From a virus: a stretch of 64,000 nucleotides of DNA. Position 1 is the first letter of the stretch. Each line of letters opens with the position of its first letter. The notes below the pieces were generated by a model. That model searched no databases. It was not told the DNA's origin and was given only the letters and a program-made list of their open reading frames with translations. This document shows, in pieces, positions 1 to 10,022 of this stretch. The stretch lies in IMG/VR virus record IMGVR_UViG_3300025941_000667, positions 14,218 to 78,217 of that record. One strand, 5' to 3'. Position numbers and translations under genes: made by a program.

Positions 1-3000
1 GAGATATCCCGCAAGTTCCTGCCGTCGCGTGCCGAATGTTTCTTGAAGGTCAGCCATCTTCCCAGTTTACTAGGAGAAGGAGGGACAGGGGGAGCCATAC
101 CGGGAAGATAGGAGGCTTTTGGGGCAGCAACACGGAAGGTGGGGATCTCTCCGTTCTCGTCAGCGAAGATGTCCGCACGCTTCACTTGCTGGCTTGGATT
201 AAATGAAATCTCGGGAGTCACGTAATCCATGAGGGCGCCGGAGCGAATCAACTTCGTGGCGGCGGCATACATTTTATCAGTCCCGGTAGCTACGCTCGGT
301 TGTTCCACATACGCAAACGCCTCTGCCGCACCAAAGCGCAGCAATCCTGCTTTGAGATGGGCTTTTGCTTTCTCTGTGTCGAGGAAGGTCTGTTCATGGA
401 TAGATTGGGCGGCACGGACACGCCCCGTTGCATCACGGTACACGATAGCGACCCAGCCCGTAGGAGCTTGGAGTTCTTTTCCGACGAGTGCGACACTTCC
501 ACTACCTAGAACCATTTTCCCTAACACCTCATGTGGAATTGGCGCTTGATTGGGCTCAAGGGGGTCTTCCGTGCCAGTCACGGAACGATCAAGCGCATAG
601 TGAGTAGATTTGCCTTTGGGATCAATATAGGCATAGGTGTCAAAGTTAATAATGACATGACCGGCGTAGCGGCCACCACCTCCTTCCCTATCCAAGAGTG
701 CAGGGACAACGGAAGAAAAACGGCGATCATCACCAGAAGGGGCAGGATTGCCTCCCGGGTGATTATGAGACAACCACCATTTGACGTTTCCGTTGCCATT
801 GTCTTCTATCTTCAGAATTCGATCTTTGATGTTTTGGATAAAGGCAGATTCTTGTCCTTTGGGAATGACCTGCACGGTTCCAGGAAGCCGCGAGGTAAAC
901 GCTTCATGATCCACGACCTTCCCTTCTTGGGCGTAGACGATATGGAAGGTTTCATACTGCTTGTTCCGGTAGACACGGGCAATGGTGGCAAGGTCTTGGG
1001 CGGTGCGTAACTCTTGACCGTGCAGCGTTATGAACCCTTTCTCTTCGAGGTCCGTGCGGATCGCTTGTGCTGTCGTAATAACGTCTGGAGTTCCTCGGTC
1101 CCGCCCAAGCGTTCCTCCTGCAGTGGATAGGTCTTCGGCTGACGGGATAAGCTGCTGGGTGAGCTGCTCGGCGTGGACTTTGGCGTCGGCTCTGGTTTTG
1201 GGTTCTGGGAAGAGTGCAATTTGTTCATAACTTGACTGTACCTGATCCGGCCCATACTCTGCCGTCGGTTCAGACACGCCTTCTATCTTCAAATGATTTT
1301 CAGTCGCTACGCGAAACGCCATTGCTTTTTCAGCAGTGGGGAACAGAAATCCTTTAGCAAACCGACTCCAACCTCCACTGTTCGCTTTTGCGAAGCCTGC
1401 AACCTTCGCATACTGGTCTGAAGACAATGTCGGGCGGATATTCACCTTCTGAACAGTTTTATTGATACGAGTATCGAGATGTTCTGTTTGAGTAGTGAGC
1501 GGCTTCGGGCCTGCCGGTTCGCCTTGCGGGGGCAAGGTGGCACCGCGACTTGTGAGCTGGTCCGCAAGATTTTCCTGTCGAGACGGCATATTTATATGCT
1601 CAATACGATCAAACAGCTCGTTGATCGTTTTGGCGTCGGAGAGATCAAGATGCGGCCCGTCGGGGATCTGCCTGACTGCCTCTGGAGTGCTGGCTTTCTG
1701 CAACACCACAAGCCGCGTATTCACCCCTGTCCCAGCCCGCTCGAAGGTGACAGAGGGAAGATTGATCGTTGCTATGGGATAGACATTCCCGCCGGGTTCT
1801 TTGCTATCCAGCTCTTGAAATTGTTCCCAGCGCCTATCTGCCATCCCACCACGGGGCAGTATCGCGACAATGCGGCCCCCTTCTGCAAGATGCCCGGCGG
1901 CTTTAATCAGATGCTCAAATGCTGTCTTGCCTCCGGACCCGTACGGCGGGTTCATAAGAATCGCTTGATACTTATTGCTTACATGGTGATTCTCGAACGT
2001 ATCTTCAATGACGGTCGCCTTATTATTGGCAAGTCGCGCACGGTTCGCGAGTTCAGCGGATGGTTCAATCAGTTTCGTGGTCGTATCTTCCGGGATAAAG
2101 CGTCCGATGGCGCCATGGCCGGCAGACGGCTCTAACACATGATTACCTTTACGAATATCGGCAAACTCGACCATTTTGAAGCCGATAGGTTCCGGCGTCG
2201 GGAAGTAGTCTTGGCCTGCCCGTTGGTCGCGGCGGGCGTTGAGTTTTTGTTGCGCCCAGTAATACGTTTTTGCTTTGGCGAATCCTGTCAGCGTTTGTTG
2301 CGCGGCCACGGACTTGTCGTACTCTTTGCCGCCTGTTCCTTCTCCTTCGTAAGGCGTGAAATGCTCAGCTCCGCCATAGGCGTCAATGAACGACTGCCGG
2401 AGGCCACGAGCAAGCACGCCCATACCGAGGTTCTCGGCAGTAGAAGCCCGCTGCGCAATGGACGTAGCAAAAGCGCGGGTTTCCCAGGACGTACCGGTGG
2501 TCATGTAGCGCTGGATCGCATTCGAGGCTTGCCCGATACGATAAATTCGCCCTTCTATTTGAATAGTCGCGACAGGCCGGGATGGCATGCCGAGATTGAT
2601 ATTGACACGCTGATATTTGCCAGTCGTATCATGCAGGCTAATCCCTTCGCGGCCCGCATCGGACTGCACCACAATAATACGATGGGGGTCAGCACCGGGC
2701 TGTTCTGAGTTGAATTGATCAATAGCTTGGCTGCGTTTTTTCTTTGGGACGGTTCCGTTGAAAAAGACCGCTTCAGGGAAGGCTTTTTTCAACGTATCAA
2801 TGGGCGCTTCAAGGTCACTAAAATCCAGATTCGCAAGATCGGTATGCTCTCGGTTGAATTTGTCAATCAGGTCATGGGTATACCAAGTTTCCGTCTTATA
2901 GGTTCCGTTCGACTGTTTGACGGGAATAGTCTGTGCTTCGTTGACGTAATCTTTCTTCTCAAACTTGAATGGATGAAATCCACCGCCTTTGTTGAAGTCG

Positions 3001-6000
3001 TGGAACACAACGACTTTTCGGCCAAGATCCAGATGCGCCTGAATCTGGGGAATCGCCTCTTTTGCTTTGATCGCCTCAAGCAAGAATTGCCGTTTGTGAA
3101 AATCGAAGTTCTGTTCTGCGACTCTATAGAGCGGGTCAAAGACACCGCCGCTACCATTGCGGAGAATGTCAAGTCCGCGGTCAATGTCCTGACCAATCGC
3201 GGAAGGGGTGAGAACGAAGCGCCGATCATAATCAAAGGGGACATCGAGTTGACGGCCAACAAGCGCGCCTTGGTCCTGGAGCCATTGATTAAAGTTCTGC
3301 TCCATGATTTCTGAGTTGACATCGGCAGTCGGCTGTGTGAGTTTGCCAGTCCGCATTCGATAGCCGAAATGCTGGATCATGAAGGCTTGTTGTTTGTCAG
3401 GTGCATTGTAACCGCTACCACCCCGAAGTCCTTCCTGAAAGATGCGGGATGGCGGAACATAATGGAACAGGAATCCTTCTGCGGCATCGACGTTTGGCGC
3501 CCACGCAAATGGGGTCGCGGACAGGAACGTCACCAGCGGGCGATCACCTTCCTGCCAACGTTTTTGATAGAGCGGGCGCTCGCGCTTTTCAATCGCATGA
3601 ACGGCATCGCCTGCTTCTTGGATTTCCCGTTCCATCGCCATGATTTCTTGGTCTGTGGCATCCTGAGAGACATGACGCATGGCCTGTGCAACACGATCAT
3701 AGCGTTCGTATTCTCTCGGATACGCCGTGCGCGCCCAATCAAGAAACGCTACATGGTGCCCTGTCAGTGCGCGAAACATGCGGAGTGTTTCATTGACCGC
3801 GCCCGTTTTCTCGCTCGACATACTATGGGATTCGTCAAGAATAATGAGATCCCAGGTCCGGGGCGCCACGAGCGAAATGTTTTGGTGCATGTTGGCGTAG
3901 GTCGTCACCACCGGGCCACTGCCGCCATTCTCTGTTGTACTTGTCAGAGGGCGAAGGGGGAGCCCGACCAACGCTGCCCGAGTCGCCCACGTTTCCACGA
4001 GTTCTTGCGTCGGAGCAAGCACGAGAATGTTCTTTTTGCCTGCCAAGAATTGACGGTAGGCAATGCCAAGCCCCGTAAACGTTTTGCCGGTCCCAGGTCC
4101 ATTGGTGAACAGCATGCCGTGCTCTTTGACTTTTCCGTCCGCATCAAAGAACCGTTGCTCAGCTTTGAGCACGTCGTTTTGCTGTTCAGGCAGGAGGTAA
4201 GGAACGGTGCGGGCTATGTCTCGGGCGTCTCCGAAGGTGGGGCGTTTGTCAGCATCGGGGAGGGCGTTGAAGTCCTGTTGTCGGGCAAGACGCTCTCCTT
4301 CTGTGGCTGTACCAAGTTCTTGAACATCGTCAACAATGTCTGCTGTTCGCTGTTCGTCAGTGGGTGATCCCGCTTCGCCGCCGCCACTGCTTCCGCTGGG
4401 CTCGTTATCTCCGGTAGCGGATTTCTCAAGGTCAAGTTGGCCGTCTGGTGTATATACTCGCTGATTGCCTGATGTTCCGCCAGCAGCGGGGCTAGTGTCT
4501 GGTACGCCACGATCACCGGCGACGAGAGGCCCTGTGCCCGTAGCGCCTTGGCCTGTTCCTGTAATGTTTGGTTGAGTTCCTCCTGGTTCATTGAGAACAG
4601 GCGATGGAGCGCCGGGTGTTTCAGGTGGACCGTTCGGGCGATCCGGTTCAGGACTGGGGCCGCGATGTGGTACATTCTGTTTCTCCTGCTGTAAGTCGTG
4701 ACGAAGGCGCCGCAGATAAGGGACGGCATTTTGTCCATACGTTGTAATCGCGTCACGAAAGAAATCGGTTAAGGGGCGACCCATTTGCGCAAAATCATCA
4801 AGCGTCTCCAGTAGCAGCGGCTTCACGCGCTCGTAGCGAGCCTCATCCGGGACGGGAGGAGGCGCAGGCGCACCATACGGCGCGTTCTCCTCTTTAAGGG
4901 AGCCGAACTCTTGCAATAATTGCAGTTCGCGCGCAACGCGGGCGGGGGTAGGATCAATCCCTTTATTGACCAAGGATTGCCGAGCTTGCTCTTCAGGGGT
5001 GGCTTGCACTTTCGGAGTACGCGGAGCACGGGGGGCGCGAGGAGGGACAGACGCGCCTTGTGGTCGGGACGCGCGAGGAGGACGAGGAGTCGCAGGAGGA
5101 GCTGGTGGCTGTGCTTCTTGAAGGGCGTTCTCGAAATCATCGTCGGACAAATCAGTGACCGCGGCCCGAGAGGACGCGGGCGCCGCTACTGGAGCGGGCG
5201 GTTCTTCAGCAGGGGACTCACCGGGGGTGGTGGGTTCGGGAACTTCACCCTCGGGGCCAGTTTCGGGGCTGGGAGGCTCACCCTGTGTGCTGGGACTAGA
5301 TGGGGGTGTTGGTTCTGGAGCCGTTGGTACAGCGCCTGGAGTACCTTCTGTTGTACTAGCGGGTTCGTCTGAGAAAAGCGAAGTTTGACCACCGCCTGTT
5401 TCTCCTTCATAAGTTAAGGCCGCACTCCACAAGTCGGCCTTGCTGGGAGTCGGCCCTTTGGGTCCAAACAATTCATGTTGCCGGGGATCGCCTGTTGTTT
5501 CAACGGCATCGAGATACCGGGTAATGAGTGAACCGAGTTTCTTTCCACTGCGTGCATACTTCTCTAGGGTATCCAGCACGTCTTTTTCAAATGGGGTCGC
5601 CTTCGGAGCACCAAACAAAGCGCCTTGTGGATTGTTCAAGTAATTATTGACATTAATGCCCTTCGCCCGCAGACTCGACAGCGTATTTGCGGCAGTGGCA
5701 AGGTCGGAGGCGATGTTCAACGGATAGCGAGCGCCTGCGTCAATGCGCTCTTGGAGCTTCACAAACCGGGGCGCGGTGACCACCAGCGCATTCATGATGG
5801 CTTTGACATTTGCGTCAGGGTCTTCCCCGATCCGAGTCACCATCTCAGGATTGCCGTAGGCTTTCGCAATGATCGCGTTCCGTACTCGCTGAATGCCGGT
5901 GGTATTAAGACCGCTGCCGTCCTCCATGTAATAGTTCGGCCACTCATTCTTAGGGACGAGGTCCGTAAAGAACTGGTTAATGAAACCGGCATTTTGGGCG

Positions 6001-9000
6001 CTGTTCAGGTTGCCGTCTTCGGCTGGAACAAACTGCCGCACGAGTTCAGGACTCATGTTCTTTGCGTCCATGAACGCAATTTCTTTGGGCGACATACCGG
6101 CCACGCCAGGATTGTTGGCCTCCTGCGCAAACTTGACCCGGTTCGGAACTTCGGTCTGTCGAACCCGCACCAAGACAGGTGCTTTCATGTTCTGGATAGC
6201 CTGCGGGTCGAGACCCCAGCGGGGCGCATTGTCTACGAGCCACTGTTTGTAGTCGCCCGCCGTGCCGCGGGCGTAGGCTTTACGCAGCCCCATGGTGCGG
6301 CCATTGCCGCTTTCTACGGTCTTGTCAGGGCCAACAATCGGAGCACCGGGAGATGGGGTAGGTGTATCGCCTAGCCGGGCAGTATCAGGCTTATTCCCAA
6401 TCTCTTCCACTTGAAGACGAAGTGATTGTTGATCACGGTTACGTGGTTGCAGTTCCTGCGGGTAATCAGGATTTGCGCGGTAATTGTCATCGTGCGAGGT
6501 CACCAAGTCAGGCGCTTCCGCAACAGCTAACCGGGTATCAAATTTTGTCCCTGCTTCGGTGGTCACAGGATGGGGGTGGCCCATCAGGAAGCCGGAAGGG
6601 GTTTCTTGTGGAGGCGGTTCTTGACTTTGTGAAGAGGATTGTGGTATAGTAAGGGGTGCTCCCAGTTCTGAACTAGGAGCACCAGACACGTTACTCGTAG
6701 GAGGAGCAACATGCCCTTGATCACTTGTGTCTGTTTTTTCTGTGGGACTCAATTTTTGCGGCGGCCTTCCCAAATCACTCGGGGAAGGGACCATACTTTC
6801 TGTGGTCTGCCCTGCCATTTTGCGTATCGTCGTGTCGGCAATATCACTGCGAAGGGATATCGAGTTTTTCGGATCAAAGACAAGCGGATCTCCGAGCACC
6901 GCTTGGTCATGGAGCGACACTTGGGACGACGACTTGATCCCACGGAGGACATTCATCACATTGACGGGAACGGACTGAACAACGCTATTGAAAATTTGAG
7001 GGTCATGCAGCGCTCTGATCACAACGCTCATCATCATCCGTTGACTTGGGATATCGAAGCCGCCAAGGCCATGCTCACGAAAGGCCGGACTGTTCGAGAA
7101 CTCGCGCAGACGATCGGCGTCAGTGAGAGTGCTATCGCGCATGCCTTGAAAAGGCGCAACATTTCCGTGAATAGGCTGAGGAAGGACGGGATGAACAGGA
7201 AAATTGAGGCTGCCCGCGCCTTGCGGGAGCAAGGATGGACCTTCCGGCGCATTGCTAGGGAGTTGGGTTTCTCCCTCAGTTATCTTTTTCGTGCTTTGCG
7301 GTAACGATGACTCTTCTTTTGCGCTGGAAAGCGCGGTTTGGTGTGGCAGTTGCTCTTGACTTGGCGCAGGCTCTTCTGTCTGTTGTTCCGGCGTAGGAGC
7401 AGGTGCTTCTTGTGGAGCAGGTCCAGCTTCTACGACTTTCGGAGGTTCGTCCACTTTAGGAGATTCGAATTTCGGAGCCTCAGTTTCGAGAGGGGCTATG
7501 GGTTTCTCAGGAGCAGTCGGGACTTGGATAGGCGGCTTCTTTCCGCGTGCTAACGCTTCCGCAACCGTGCGCAGCTGGGCAGGCTGCATCTTATCCAAAT
7601 GGGATTCCCCCGTGAGTTGCTTTGTCCACTCACCAAACGCTGGATTCTTCTCCGCATCGGATTCTATCCCATGACGCTGTGCAATCGTATGGATATCTGT
7701 TGGACGTAAAGTGTATTCATTGCCCGGCTCAATAGTCTTATTAAGATTAGGATGTGCCTCAGTTGGAGCCTCTTCTTTTGTCGCTGGAGACAATATGGGT
7801 TCCGGCGCTGTCGGTGGAGTAACTGGTGGCGTTACCGGAGCTTCCTGCTTCGCCTTCGGCTGTATCCCGACCTCTTCAATCATCTTCCGCAACGGACTCG
7901 CCTGCTTGATAGAGATGCCAAGTTCTTTACGAATTTCGGATATAGTTGGAACTCGACCAAGCCCCTGCGCATACTGGAGTGCGCGTTCTTCGAGACTGCC
8001 GGCGGGAGGAGCAGCAAGTTTTACTTGGGGCGGCTGTGCAACAATCGGGGGTGGCGACTGGGTCGATACTGGGGAAGTGGACTGCGCTGCATTGACATCT
8101 CGGAGAAATGGAGAGTCTTCAGGAACATCTACATAACGGATTTTCTTTCCGTTGACCGTCACAGTTGTGAGCGAGTATTTCTTCGGAAGACTCGCGGCGA
8201 GATTAGGAAAATCGGACTCATACAAACGCGCCATCCCTGGAGGAATACGCCCTTCACCATATTTTGGCGCTGGGGATGGCGCTTGTTCAGGTTGAACAGG
8301 GGGCTGTTCAGTTTTTGGCGCTGCCTGTTCAGTTTGAGGAGCCGGCTGTTCAAGAGGGGCGCCCTTTGCGGGTGGGGGGAGTGTAGGCGGCTGCGGGCCA
8401 GCTGGACGGAGCTTACGATAAGCCTTATCAATCGCTGACGTCTCTTGCGGCGTCAGATTCTTGACTTCCAACCACTTTGAGTAGAGTTCTTGGGCTTCGG
8501 GACCAAGAGCGGCAATGTCTTGTGGGGTGAGTTCTTGCCCGTCAGTCCAGCGGGTCAGTGCTTGATTTTGTGGGTCATTTGCCGGGGCATTCTTCCGTAT
8601 ATTTTTGAGCGTAGAACGAAGATTACTAGCAACCGCATCAACTGGCGCATCGTTAGGTAATCCCAAATCCTTTTTAAGGCCAAGATATTCCCGTTCACCT
8701 AATGACAACGGACGACCAAGAATAGACGAAGCCGAGAGTGGTTCACCAACAGCTTTTACACCAAGAGCAAAGCCACCGAGTTGCCCCGCCTGTTCACCGA
8801 TCGCTTTCCCGCGCGCAGCGCCCGCAGGTCCACCAAGTGCACCTCCTGTCATTGTCCCAGCAACTTCAGTAAGTGGGGTGAGCGCTTTCGCTGCCGCCAT
8901 GCCACCCACAATACCCATCGGGTGAGTAGCTAAGGCAGGAATCATGGAAAGTGCAAGAATATCGCCAACTCCAGGATTTGGTTCCGACGGTGGTGGCGTT

Positions 9001-10022
9001 TCTCCAGGTTGTGTTCCCATTGGCGGCAAAGGTTCCATACCCAGAGGCGAAGGAGGACCACCAAATGTTTTTTCATAGGCGCGTTCGAGCTGGGAAAGCA
9101 GAGGAATCCCCATTCCTTCAGGCGCTGATTTCTTTATTTCAGGAATCTGTCCAGGAATCCGCCACTGTGTATCAGGAGAAACAAGAGGAGGAGAAGTCAC
9201 AGGAGCAGGGGTGGCAGGCGGGAGACTCGCTCCTGTGACTGGGGGGACAACGGGAGGAGCTGTAGGTTGGGAAAGAACGGGGAGAGGCGCACCAAAGGCG
9301 CCAAGCAACGCGCCGGTCTCTCCAGTAGGTAACTGTTGAGGAAAGAGGTCGGGGGCCGGGGCAGGCGGCATAAACTCTTTCGGAACAACACCCCCAAAGG
9401 TTTTCGCGTAGCGATAGGGGGCTTCGGCTTGTTCTTGAGGAGATAACGCCGCAAACTCCGGCGACTTGATAATCTCGGAAAAAGGAGGAGGAGTGGTCGA
9501 GACCGGCGCGGACGGTGCAGACTGCCCCGCGCTGGTAATCCGCGCCAGATAATCGCGGGTTTCCGGAGGAATACCACGTTCCCAATCAAACTCACCATAC
9601 TTGTTAATTGCGGCCTTGACCGTACCAATCCCCGCATTGTAGGCAGCCAGCGCTTTGCGCTTTGACCCCAATTGGTCAATCAGCGACCGCATGTACTTTG
9701 CCTGCCCATACATACTCAGGTCAGGGTCGGAAGGGTCAACACCCTGTTCTAGCGCGGTCGCGGGGACGAACTGACTGACACCCTGCGCGCCCGCAGGCGA
9801 ACGAGCAGCATTCTTCCAGTTACTTTCTTGTTGAATTTGACGGGCAAAAACATCAGGGTCGAGTCCATAGTGTTCCGCAGCGCGAGCAGCAACAGACTTA
9901 CCAAAAGTATCGACATACCTCTGGGGGGCCTCTTTTTGTTGCTGGGGAGTGAGCGCCTGAAATTCAGGCGAGCGCATGATCTCTGCAAGAGATGGGGGAG
10001 CCAGTGGTGTCTGTTCAGCCAT
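1..10022 (-). CDS. Giant polyvalent (DarB/DdrB-like) ejected protein, >3,340 aa, 3' end outside window
   Basis: ATG at 10022, preceded by AAGGTG (MAEQTPLAPP...). I checked the frame by hand over 1-120, 4141-4800, 6541-7380 and 7441-7800 and found no stops. Its absence from the ORF track fits an ORF with no in-window stop. Motifs: SLT (QIQQESNW, GAQGVSQF, ALAAYNAG; ~9530-9900); DdrB-like ParB (VTSHD..NPDYPQELQPRNR..GAPIV..VESGNGRTMGL; ~5900-6560); SF2 helicase (GPGTGKT, DESH, LSATP, IQIEGRIYR; ~2400-4170); N6-MTase (DYFPTP, LEPSAGHG, NPPY; ~1750-2260); JAB/RadC (HNHPGGNPAPSGDD; ~720-770). Confidence 0.9.
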   Translation of the reverse strand, partial: MAEQTPLAPPSLAEIMRSPEFQALTPQQQKEAPQRYVDTFGKSVAARAAEHYGLDPDVFARQIQQESNWKNAARSPAGAQGVSQFVPATALEQGVDPSDPDLSMYGQAKYMRSLIDQLGSKRKALAAYNAGIGTVKAAINKYGEFDWERGIPPETRDYLARITSAGQSAPSAPVSTTPPPFSEIIKSPEFAALSPQEQAEAPYRYAKTFGGVVPKEFMPPAPAPDLFPQQLPTGETGALLGAFGAPLPVLSQPTAPPVVPPVTGASLPPATPAPVTSPPLVSPDTQWRIPGQIPEIKKSAPEGMGIPLLSQLERAYEKTFGGPPSPLGMEPLPPMGTQPGETPPPSEPNPGVGDILALSMIPALATHPMGIVGGMAAAKALTPLTEVAGTMTGGALGGPAGAARGKAIGEQAGQLGGFALGVKAVGEPLSASSILGRPLSLGEREYLGLKKDLGLPNDAPVDAVASNLRSTLKNIRKNAPANDPQNQALTRWTDGQELTPQDIAALGPEAQELYSKWLEVKNLTPQETSAIDKAYRKLRPAGPQPPTLPPPAKGAPLEQPAPQTEQAAPKTEQPPVQPEQAPSPAPKYGEGRIPPGMARLYESDFPNLAASLPKKYSLTTVTVNGKKIRYVDVPEDSPFLRDVNAAQSTSPVSTQSPPPIVAQPPQVKLAAPPAGSLEERALQYAQGLGRVPTISEIRKELGISIKQASPLRKMIEEVGIQPKAKQEAPVTPPVTPPTAPEPILSPATKEEAPTEAHPNLNKTIEPGNEYTLRPTDIHTIAQRHGIESDAEKNPAFGEWTKQLTGESHLDKMQPAQLRTVAEALARGKKPPIQVPTAPEKPIAPLETEAPKFESPKVDEPPKVVEAGPAPQEAPAPTPEQQTEEPAPSQEQLPHQTALSSAKEESSLPQSTKKITEGETQLPSNAPEGPSLLPQGAGSLNFPVHPVLPQPIHGNVAPFQGMRDSTLTDADRLREFSNSPAFREHGLGGFDIPSQRMMMSVVIRALHDPQIFNSVVQSVPVNVMNVLRGIKSSSQVSLHDQAVLGDPLVFDPKNSISLRSDIADTTIRKMAGQTTESMVPSPSDLGRPPQKLSPTEKTDTSDQGHVAPPTSNVSGAPSSELGAPLTIPQSSSQSQEPPPQETPSGFLMGHPHPVTTEAGTKFDTRLAVAEAPDLVTSHDDNYRANPDYPQELQPRNRDQQSLRLQVEEIGNKPDTARLGDTPTPSPGAPIVGPDKTVESGNGRTMGLRKAYARGTAGDYKQWLVDNAPRWGLDPQAIQNMKAPVLVRVRQTEVPNRVKFAQEANNPGVAGMSPKEIAFMDAKNMSPELVRQFVPAEDGNLNSAQNAGFINQFFTDLVPKNEWPNYYMEDGSGLNTTGIQRVRNAIIAKAYGNPEMVTRIGEDPDANVKAIMNALVVTAPRFVKLQERIDAGARYPLNIASDLATAANTLSSLRAKGINVNNYLNNPQGALFGAPKATPFEKDVLDTLEKYARSGKKLGSLITRYLDAVETTGDPRQHELFGPKGPTPSKADLWSAALTYEGETGGGQTSLFSDEPASTTEGTPGAVPTAPEPTPPSSPSTQGEPPSPETGPEGEVPEPTTPGESPAEEPPAPVAAPASSRAAVTDLSDDDFENALQEAQPPAPPATPRPPRASRPQGASVPPRAPRAPRTPKVQATPEEQARQSLVNKGIDPTPARVARELQLLQEFGSLKEENAPYGAPAPPPVPDEARYERVKPLLLETLDDFAQMGRPLTDFFRDAITTYGQNAVPYLRRLRHDLQQEKQNVPHRGPSPEPDRPNGPPETPGAPSPVLNEPGGTQPNITGTGQGATGTGPLVAGDRGVPDTSPAAGGTSGNQRVYTPDGQLDLEKSATGDNEPSGSSGGGEAGSPTDEQRTADIVDDVQELGTATEGERLARQQDFNALPDADKRPTFGDARDIARTVPYLLPEQQNDVLKAEQRFFDADGKVKEHGMLFTNGPGTGKTFTGLGIAYRQFLAGKKNILVLAPTQELVETWATRAALVGLPLRPLTSTTENGGSGPVVTTYANMHQNISLVAPRTWDLIILDESHSMSSEKTGAVNETLRMFRALTGHHVAFLDWARTAYPREYERYDRVAQAMRHVSQDATDQEIMAMEREIQEAGDAVHAIEKRERPLYQKRWQEGDRPLVTFLSATPFAWAPNVDAAEGFLFHYVPPSRIFQEGLRGGSGYNAPDKQQAFMIQHFGYRMRTGKLTQPTADVNSEIMEQNFNQWLQDQGALVGRQLDVPFDYDRRFVLTPSAIGQDIDRGLDILRNGSGGVFDPLYRVAEQNFDFHKRQFLLEAIKAKEAIPQIQAHLDLGRKVVVFHDFNKGGGFHPFKFEKKDYVNEAQTIPVKQSNGTYKTETWYTHDLIDKFNREHTDLANLDFSDLEAPIDTLKKAFPEAVFFNGTVPKKKRSQAIDQFNSEQPGADPHRIIVVQSDAGREGISLHDTTGKYQRVNINLGMPSRPVATIQIEGRIYRIGQASNAIQRYMTTGTSWETRAFATSIAQRASTAENLGMGVLARGLRQSFIDAYGGAEHFTPYEGEGTGGKEYDKSVAAQQTLTGFAKAKTYYWAQQKLNARRDQRAGQDYFPTPEPIGFKMVEFADIRKGNHVLEPSAGHGAIGRFIPEDTTTKLIEPSAELANRARLANNKATVIEDTFENHHVSNKYQAILMNPPYGSGGKTAFEHLIKAAGHLAEGGRIVAILPRGGMADRRWEQFQELDSKEPGGNVYPIATINLPSVTFERAGTGVNTRLVVLQKASTPEAVRQIPDGPHLDLSDAKTINELFDRIEHINMPSRQENLADQLTSRGATLPPQGEPAGPKPLTTQTEHLDTRINKTVQKVNIRPTLSSDQYAKVAGFAKANSGGWSRFAKGFLFPTAEKAMAFRVATENHLKIEGVSEPTAEYGPDQVQSSYEQIALFPEPKTRADAKVHAEQLTQQLIPSAEDLSTAGGTLGRDRGTPDVITTAQAIRTDLEEKGFITLHGQELRTAQDLATIARVYRNKQYETFHIVYAQEGKVVDHEAFTSRLPGTVQVIPKGQESAFIQNIKDRILKIEDNGNGNVKWWLSHNHPGGNPAPSGDDRRFSSVVPALLDREGGGGRYAGHVIINFDTYAYIDPKGKSTHYALDRSVTGTEDPLEPNQAPIPHEVLGKMVLGSGSVALVGKELQAPTGWVAIVYRDATGRVRAAQSIHEQTFLDTEKAKAHLKAGLLRFGAAEAFAYVEQPSVATGTDKMYAAATKLIRSGALMDYVTPEISFNPSQQVKRADIFADENGEIPTFRVAAPKASYLPGMAPPVPPSPSKLGRWLTFKKHSARDGRNLRDI
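4214..4675 (-). CDS. Nested same-strand alternative-frame gene, 153 aa, unknown function
   Basis: AGGAG (4687-4683) lies 7 nt before ATG 4675. The product (MYHIAAPVLNRIARTVHL...) looks helical and protein-like, while the giant frame over the same bases is a G/T/P/S linker. Confidence 0.6.
   Translation of the reverse strand: MYHIAAPVLNRIARTVHLKHPALHRLFSMNQEELNQTLQEQAKALRAQGLSSPVIVAYQTLAPLLAEHQAISEYIHQTANLTLRNPLPEITSPAEAVAAAKRDHPLTNSEQQTLLTMFKNLVQPQKESVLPDNRTSTPSPMLTNAPPSETPET
6621..6650 (+). promoter_or_regulatory. sigma70-type promoter for the nested HNH gene
   Basis: TTGACT (6621-6626), 18 nt spacer, TATAGT (6645-6650), with extended -10 TG at 6642-6643. Confidence 0.7.
6655..6683. promoter_or_regulatory. 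Hairpin at predicted 5' end of HNH transcript
   Basis: GGTGCTCC-C-AGTTC-T-GAACT-A-GGAGCACC inverted repeat; RBS AGGAGGAG follows at 6699-6706. Confidence 0.65.
6711..7304 (+). CDS. HNH homing-type endonuclease with N-terminal Zn ribbon and C-terminal HTH motifs, nested antisense in the giant gene
   Basis: CxxC...FCxxxC; EHRLVMERHLGR...DIHHIDGNGLNNAIENL...DHNAHH (HNH_3-like); two HTH-like segments (TVRELAQTIGVSESAI, TFRRIARELGFSLSYL); strong RBS. Confidence 0.9.
   Translation: MPLITCVCFFCGTQFLRRPSQITRGRDHTFCGLPCHFAYRRVGNITAKGYRVFRIKDKRISEHRLVMERHLGRRLDPTEDIHHIDGNGLNNAIENLRVMQRSDHNAHHHPLTWDIEAAKAMLTKGRTVRELAQTIGVSESAIAHALKRRNISVNRLRKDGMNRKIEAARALREQGWTFRRIARELGFSLSYLFRALR

Follow-up and report, generated by a model that had tools for sequence, protein, structure and literature searches.

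How can a gene for a homing-type endonuclease persist inside a protein-coding gene that no splicing element protects? This question is raised by a 64,000-nucleotide (nt) stretch of viral DNA (hereafter, the window), which corresponds to bases 14218–78217 of the 78,217-nt IMG/VR virus record IMGVR_UViG_3300025941_000667 and has a G+C content of 53.7%. An HNH endonuclease gene (6711–7304, plus strand; 197 amino acids (aa) and a stop codon) lies antisense within a giant gene for a polyvalent protein (3–10022, minus strand), whose 3' end runs off the start of the window and whose product is 3,396 aa long in the full record. The giant gene is referred to below as the host gene. To our knowledge, homing endonuclease genes, textbook selfish elements, are thought to survive inside genes only by way of introns or inteins. 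We consider it likely that this locus is a self-contained antisense HNH cassette of homing type, at approximately 6594–7370, which is located in a linker between two domains and is read through by the host gene.

The anatomy of the locus was read directly from the DNA. The triplets of the giant gene and the HNH start codon (ATG at 6711) all begin at positions divisible by 3, and thus the two genes share the same triplets on opposite strands. In such a codon-aligned register, each stop codon of the antisense frame would be a whole sense codon (TTA, CTA or TCA) of the HNH gene, and HNH could therefore keep the host frame open simply by choosing synonymous Leu and Ser codons, with its own protein unchanged. 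We found that none of the 18 Leu and 8 Ser codons of the HNH open reading frame (ORF) was TTA, CTA or TCA. Between 6541 and 7380, the frame of the giant gene had no stop codon, compared with 4 to 14 in each of the other five frames; the 4 stops in HNH's own frame within this interval fell outside its ORF. An earlier reading of the letters alone (the first-pass annotation) had placed the HNH ORF at these coordinates and in this register and had described the interval 6541–7380 as free of the three codons, and all of this was reproduced.

The cassette covers about 777 bp, or ~259 host-frame residues (~885–1143). Its left limit was taken as the start of ParB homology and its right limit as the site of 510 extra in-frame bases in a related contig; both limits are approximate because there is no empty site to define them. 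The host-frame peptide exactly antisense to HNH comprises giant residues 907–1104 and includes ...ALHDPQIFNSVVQSVPVNVMNVLR...; the host-frame peptide of the window's cassette contains no Cys, Tyr or Trp. A DdrB-like ParB domain was assigned by Pfam to giant residues 1158–1288 (window 6159–6593, minus strand), with a start ~39 residues past the cassette. True DdrB-ParB homology begins at residue ~1144 (window ~6593), 39 residues past the antisense of the HNH start codon, in agreement with the earlier proposal that the cassette immediately precedes a ParB-like domain. BLASTP alignments in which ParB homologues seemed to enter the antisense region were rejected, their extensions being low-complexity sequence. 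Similarly, the cassette in a related locus (L018) ends ~20 residues before the start of a conserved module. Together, these two distances indicate that the cassettes occupy linkers between modules. As a result of the insertion, the host protein would carry ~250 additional residues between its N-terminal part and the ParB domain.

Candidate expression signals were present on the plus strand on both sides of the HNH gene. A putative sigma-70-like promoter with a TG extension, TTGACT-18-TATAGT, is located at 6621–6650, 60 nt before the HNH start, and its role is suggested by this position. It matched 10 of 12 consensus positions and was the sole promoter-like match in 2 kb, a length in which chance alone would give 1.0. 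It is followed by a hairpin in the HNH leader (GGTGCTCC...GGAGCACC; 6655–6683) and by a Shine-Dalgarno sequence (AGGAGGAG; 6699–6706) 4 nt before the ATG. A terminator-like hairpin, which is a consensus match only, was found at 7319–7336, 15 nt past the stop codon. The HNH leader as a whole folded no better than its shuffles (z of -1.15), and none of the four signals (promoter, leader hairpin, ribosome-binding site, terminator-like hairpin) was significant on its own. The ribosome-binding site and leader hairpin claimed earlier were therefore there; of the claim that the cassette has its own promoter, the sequence itself stood and its significance did not. Many nested relatives of this gene (see below) have a GGAGG, or a TATAAT box 7–10 nt before the ATG.

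The sequence across the cassette was compared with independent sequencing runs. A 1,775-nt contig from the probable source run matched 6052–7826 exactly, an independent aquatic run contained identical pieces inside HNH, and a third independent run, from a rhizosphere, contained a ~91% identical variant with the cassette present. The assembly across the cassette was thus confirmed, and the stop or frameshift that resequencing might have revealed was not seen. No RNA run was among those listed as containing the sequence. Both frames are kept by every length change in the ~91% variant. At 7370/7374, presumably where the cassette has its 3' end, this variant carries 510 additional bases (3 x 170), and single-base deletions at 6773, 6777 and 6780 (within 8 nt, net -3) jointly cost it one codon.

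The HNH protein itself was readily recognized. It matched the Pfam family HNH_3 (PF13392) with 43.1 bits, against a curated cut-off of 24.8 (E of 3.2e-11), and PHROG 59 at 6e-20. It contains a Cys4 zinc finger, the HNH_3 core, a WDIExAK motif and two helix-turn-helix (HTH) modules identified by Pfam, HTH_38 (residues 114–148) and HTH_23 (residues 163–197). Such a joining of a predicted nuclease to HTH DNA-binding modules is expected of homing endonucleases. The catalytic beta-beta-alpha-metal residues and zinc-binding cysteines were conserved in the family: the Cys4, EHR and HH(I)(D/N)G motifs and the N, N, H and H residues were kept in all 22 distinct relatives, and C8, C11, C31, C35, H63, H82, H83, N91, N95, H104 and H108 were invariant in 22 of 22 sequences. 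The AlphaFold2 model had a mean predicted local distance difference test score (pLDDT) of 92.4. Foldseek searches with this model gave weak rows only, the top match in PDB being the homing endonuclease I-HmuI (1u3e). A search with the HNH protein found only 11 database relatives and no self-match.

We then examined whether the layout is peculiar to the window. A phmmer search with giant residues 601–1143 against 1.8 billion cluster representatives was carried out for alleles without the insert. It found 188 cluster representatives, most of them 1,000 to 5,000 aa long, and nearly all aligned only to giant residues 954–1094, that is, to the antisense of HNH residues 11–151. A hidden Markov model of this segment detected it in 145 of the 149 matches listed; of these 145 carriers, among the matches listed, 116 were at least 1,000 aa long and six had more than one copy. 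Other domains of the segment-carrying proteins were SLT, LPD38, Peptidase_M23, ART-PolyVal and PBECR5, and hence of the polyvalent type. The conserved host-frame motifs are reverse complements of HNH motifs; for example, ...VPVNVVN.L is derived from HHI(D/N)G(N/D), and LDVPSQR from the WDIE motif.

At the DNA level, 102 loci came from pattern scans that covered IMG/VR, the JGI metagenomes and GTDB genomes. In every close relative fetched (tblastn E of 1e-20 or better), the HNH ORF ran antisense and codon-aligned inside a host ORF. Host ORFs had 725 to 3,498 codons, apart from the one in L022 with 260, and many were ended only by the edge of the locus. For example, the best named homologue, an 'HNH endonuclease' from a Sphingomonas metagenome-assembled genome, has a host ORF that spans 2,547 codons or more. 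After removal of duplicates, 22 distinct nested genes remained, all with an intact HNH. Two further loci (L025 and L026) brought the distinct nested genes examined to 24; in both, HNH was broken and the host ORF was still open. In a quick tree, 21 of the 22 nested genes formed one group. More distant HNH_3 genes were free-standing, with aligned antisense ORFs of ~10–130 codons, and were used as controls. Judged by these sequences, antisense codon-aligned nesting in giant polyvalent genes is the normal habitat of this HNH_3 clade.

Some of these loci had additional features. Two giant host ORFs each carry a pair of intact, codon-aligned HNH cassettes: that of L005/L020 (4918–5547 and 5959–6504 of L005, minus strand) and that of L088 (2331–3041 and 4959–5453, plus strand), the second cassette of L088 being without the N-terminal zinc-finger part. 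Besides, L004 and L007, which came from different collections, were 99.98% identical over 10.4 kb, and their giant ORFs had 2,821 and 1,842 codons, respectively; their host genes must differ, in the C-terminal part, by a stop or a frameshift.

If the host frame is read through, its openness should leave a trace in the codons of HNH. Given the window HNH protein and the codon usage of the genome, the chance of having no TTA, CTA or TCA was 0.015. An open aligned antisense frame was observed in 1.2% of 198-codon windows in other genes of the genome, and none of its 38 other small genes had a fully open one. The chance is therefore ~0.5 to 1.5% for the window alone, which is suggestive, not decisive, for one locus found by scanning. 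The survey of related HNH genes that the first-pass annotation had recommended was far more informative. The 22 nested genes contained 333 Leu and 268 Ser codons, and not one was TTA, CTA or TCA. These three account for 24% of Leu and 14% of Ser codons in 18 free-standing relatives with a G+C content like theirs, which gives a log10 P of -57.8 for the nested set. None of 37 control ORFs was free of the three codons, and the estimate adjusted for G+C was 1e-51. As the 22 genes are related, these joint P values overstate independence, although synonymous sites are well randomised between genes only ~42% identical. The other two antisense phases of the nested genes had 5.5 and 14.9 stops per gene. 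Thus, the forward gene lacks TTA, CTA and TCA beyond expectation, which is the property that defines an ambigram.

The tuning of HNH codons extended beyond stops. Synonymous codons for the 22 HNH proteins were drawn from control usage, and the resulting host-frame residues were compared with those observed. There were 0 host-frame stops (118 expected), 4 Cys (98 expected), 22 Tyr (84 expected) and 5 Trp (20 expected). His, Phe and Arg were also depleted relative to this synonymous null, and Ser, Gly, Lys and Asp were strongly enriched. Codon exclusion and composition tuning together imply that host ribosomes read through the cassette and that the product must stay soluble and harmless. Synonymous sites of HNH would then have a second role, to shape a soluble, cysteine-free and linker-like host-frame peptide, and neither RNA nor protein splicing would be involved. 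It had been proposed earlier that the antisense strand is tolerated as a linker of the host protein; the clade-wide layout, stop exclusion and composition tuning all support this proposal, with translation of the peptide predicted from them.

The two frames differed in how well they were conserved. The HNH frame had a mean pairwise identity of 41.6%, compared with 27.2% for the host frame, and the 22 sequences had 19 invariant columns in the HNH frame and none in the host frame. The mean pLDDT of AlphaFold2 models was 92.4 for the HNH frame and 60.0 for the host frame. HNH is the main selected frame, and the 19 invariant columns answer the earlier concern that it might not be under purifying selection.

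Several lines of evidence are related to mobility of the cassette. None of the 119 polyvalent proteins nearest to the window's protein by ParB domain had the segment. The cassette was usually the only part common between loci, and where other modules were common, they lay on differing sides of it. Blastn similarity between loci was limited to HNH (e.g., 78% over 350 nt for L005 and L012). L018 and L086 had 2.6 kb in common and differed by 4.7% outside HNH, mostly at host third positions; within this region, a tract of 1,116 nt (4830–5946), consisting of HNH and 177 nt and 307 nt of flanking sequence, was identical. This tract is not explained by mere constraint, since the cassette region diverges more than the ParB region in the window's ~91% variant. 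In addition, P0283 matched the L018 host at 94% identity, starting 46 nt before the HNH ATG, and had another module in place of the cassette. Patchiness, unrelated flanks, double copies, decay and an identical tract are what a homing element commonly leaves behind as it invades, co-converts its surroundings and decays. We therefore regard HNH as most probably a selfish nuclease of homing type, whose cleavage and homing are predicted from these patterns. Related genes would be cut by it and would acquire the cassette during repair, and flanking host sequence would be carried along.

A number of observations weigh against this reading. We infer from sequence, in particular, that the insert is translated through, that HNH is separately expressed and that it homes. 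The promoter match, though well placed, was no better than chance frequency, and the relatedness of the 22 genes has been mentioned above. A precise cassette-free allele was found neither for any relative nor for the window gene, for which the first-pass annotation had hoped to see homologues lacking a block here, and no contig in the sequencing runs joined across the cassette site. P0283 differs by a whole module and is not a clean empty site. The identical tract of L018 and L086 could have arisen by ordinary recombination instead of nuclease-driven homing. Recent copying with co-converted flanks (L018 and L086) and decay (L025 and L026) were seen in relatives, not in the window. Finally, the model of the host-frame peptide contained a confident helical stretch (residues 57–129, pLDDT 82–90), and the host frame showed a small excess of conservation; the peptide may thus be more than a passive linker.

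An alternative is that HNH is a domesticated partner that serves the phage or its polyvalent gene, with the nesting as a regulatory arrangement. For example, HNH might cut the DNA of competitors or of the host, or antisense transcription might time the giant late gene. The persistence of an intact HNH in 22 of 24 nested genes despite deep divergence is in line with this idea, as are expression signals of its own that face the host gene and the restriction to one class of host gene. In contrast, a domesticated gene would not be expected to show the patchy distribution seen among the nearest ParB homologues (0 of 119), a position that varies relative to host modules or two copies in some genes, and decayed copies and an identical tract centred on the cassette are typical of selfish homing genes. 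We regard domestication as unlikely.

Quite unlikely, in our view, is true dual coding, in which the host-frame peptide would be a functional folded domain of polyvalent proteins. The helical stretch noted above may be viewed in this way. Besides, host-frame identity exceeded a synonymous null with z of 6 to 10 (0.266, compared with 0.234 after synonymous shuffling, at z = 10.6), unlike in controls (z = 1.6); composition was strongly tuned, and one host-frame Ser was kept via different codon families while the HNH residue varied. However, 23.4 points of the 26.6% identity were a by-product of HNH conservation according to the same shuffling, no host-frame column was invariant, and the model as a whole was poor (mean pLDDT 60, predicted template modelling score 0.38), without a structural match in Foldseek. 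The tuning was toward disorder-promoting residues, and an amphipathic appearance is what one would expect of any sequence antisense to a folded protein. It had been argued beforehand that finding the segment as a conserved folded host domain in all homologues would count against an inserted cassette; its absence from the 119 ParB homologues and the lack of invariant host-frame columns do not fit that outcome. The host-frame peptide is constrained mainly in composition, perhaps with a weak further constraint.

It is extremely improbable that chance or an artefact accounts for the layout, i.e., that an ordinary free-standing HNH gene stands between two genes, which codon usage or an assembly accident has joined into one giant ORF. 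The probability calculated for the window alone is not negligible across a large scan, and the giant gene contains other long aligned antisense ORFs without a domain. In contrast, the same layout occurs in 22 distinct loci and ~145 protein clusters, with a joint log10 P of about -51 to -58. The upstream part has no stop codon, SLT and ParB are known to occur in one polypeptide, and independent runs confirmed the sequence.

We give hardly any credence to a hidden intron or intein too divergent to detect, which would remove the segment: a second HNH family (described below) that appears to lie antisense inside intein-coding DNA suggests that nesting and splicing can co-occur, but stop exclusion and residue tuning of the host frame would be pointless if the RNA segment were removed, and all searches for splicing elements were negative. 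At E up to 10, Rfam detected neither a group I nor a group II intron in window positions 6000–8000 (two chance matches to long non-coding RNAs only), and 18 related loci gave nothing at gathering score. The giant protein had no Hint or intein domain in Pfam, and an intein is excluded by the location of HNH on the opposite strand. Cassette flanks showed no conservation between loci at either protein or DNA level, which leaves no possibility of a common ribozyme or splicing block. The earlier statement that neither intron nor intein is present was therefore upheld.

How does a read-through antisense cassette compare with known systems? Free-standing homing endonuclease genes of phages are located between genes or split a host gene into two polypeptides; for example, an insertion of mobE reportedly splits nrdA in Aeromonas phage Aeh1. 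Like these genes, the cassette has candidate expression signals of its own and no splicing element, appears to spread by cutting and can land in a gene. Unlike free-standing genes and mobE, it leaves the host reading frame uninterrupted through the element. With I-HmuI, representing HNH enzymes borne by introns or inteins, it has in common the nuclease family and the elongated architecture of nuclease and DNA-binding parts; in that case, however, the host is spared by RNA or protein splicing, and there is no splicing element here. With regard to the codon trick, the nearest analogue is that of the ambigrammatic narnaviruses, in which a codon-aligned reverse ORF is open as the forward gene avoids codons complementary to stops. 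Narnaviruses are RNA viruses whose reverse ORF belongs to no known protein family, whereas the present case concerns a double-stranded DNA phage in which both genes are recognisable and the invader gene adapts its codons.

The closest precedent is the ShiLan domain, with related 'hidden HNH' insertions (Arsenault, Gosselin and Gogarten 2025, PMC11855218), where an HNH gene was inserted in an actinophage DNA methylase gene. The host frame is open across that insert, there is no intron or intein, the host-frame product is predicted to form a tolerated loop, and the patchy distribution was taken as a sign of active homing (PMC11855218). Our cassette is similar in being an HNH insert in a phage coding gene, with the host frame open, no splicing element and a patchy distribution. 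In contrast, the ShiLan HNH shares the strand of its host, is read in the third frame and lacks an evident promoter, whereas the cassette described here is on the opposite strand and codon-aligned, with a putative promoter and ribosome-binding site; its host is a giant polyvalent gene, it lies in an inter-domain linker, and stops are excluded via three whole codons. That an HNH gene can be inserted without a splicing element and be read through by its host is therefore, as a principle, already published (PMC11855218). The first-pass annotation had spoken of 'another strategy', and this holds for the antisense codon-aligned form but not for splicing-free read-through as such. What appears new is this antisense form with its own promoter, the specialisation on polyvalent genes, the abundance and the codon-level tuning. 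Our literature searches found no account of HNH genes that lie antisense in giant genes, whether polyvalent or not; the study that defined polyvalent proteins (PMC5512222) does not mention homing, antisense or nested HNH genes, and its single 'HNH' concerns GmrSD.

A broader view is possible, though we hold it only tentatively and find it doubtful as a whole: antisense codon-aligned HNH cassettes may constitute a distinct and widespread class of homing elements, a fourth lifestyle in addition to the intron-borne, intein-borne and free-standing ones, and maybe also the engine that shuffles modules of polyvalent proteins. Nuclease breaks and co-conversion would then move neighbouring effector modules between giant genes. 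Cassette edges are often the points where homology between giant genes that are otherwise unrelated begins or breaks off, and cassettes are located at linker boundaries. If this view is correct, the intein-associated antisense HNH family described below would be a second independent case of homing nucleases on the wrong strand.

These findings have several implications. A whole clade would persist in coding DNA by an informational trick, the backwards register writing a harmless linker for the host. Gene callers and databases miss nested HNH genes of this kind: the window HNH was absent from a collection of 5.8 billion proteins, in which the antisense translation of HNH was found 188 times as part of giant proteins. 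The clade is also a clean case, in nature, of dual coding over a long antisense overlap, in which selection can be measured for each of the two frames. It suggests a mechanism, open to test, by which injected phage anti-defence proteins may have become so extremely modular, and it yields design rules for hiding one gene inside another.

The host gene deserves a brief description. Besides the ParB domain, Pfam assigned to its product an SLT domain (residues 45–145), a superfamily 2 helicase (ResIII/Helicase_C; residues 1949–2544) and a methyltransferase (MTS; residues 2628–2722). Several unrelated effector domains are thus present in one giant polypeptide, and the gene product fits the term polyvalent protein as used by Iyer et al. 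2017 (PMC5512222), with the typical SLT, DdrB-ParB and methylase-helicase modules. It is located at the end of a minus-strand block that includes the portal and virion proteins, downstream of both and on the same strand, and its product is presumably packaged and injected. The protein collection searched contained no close relatives of the giant protein, and a search of IMG/VR with the whole protein found two distant relatives only, confined to the helicase-methylase part. In cultured phage and plasmid records, neither blastn nor tblastn found a match. TTA, CTA and TCA made up 1.3% of codons in the giant gene versus 2.2% in other genes. Other long ORFs (190–330 codons) lie antisense inside the giant gene, and the two longest of them (3369–4367 and 5625–6374, both plus strand) are codon-aligned with it. 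None of the other long antisense or shifted ORFs inside this gene had a Pfam match; given this and the low use of TTA, CTA and TCA, they are probably by-products and were set aside.

The second HNH family has an N-terminal HTH followed by HNH_3 and formed its own clade in the quick tree. Its members lie antisense in ORFs of 350–970 codons, and their frame is not codon-aligned with the ORF around them. They were found at L053, L063, L077, L078, L079/L081, L082/L083, L089, L093, L101, L080 and L073; for example, the HNH gene at 4737–5360 (plus strand) of L078 is inside an ORF at 3139–5706 (minus strand) of the same locus. In five of these long ORFs, Pfam detected the intein splicing domain PF14890 around the insert, and by this evidence they resemble inteins that have their homing nuclease encoded on the other strand.

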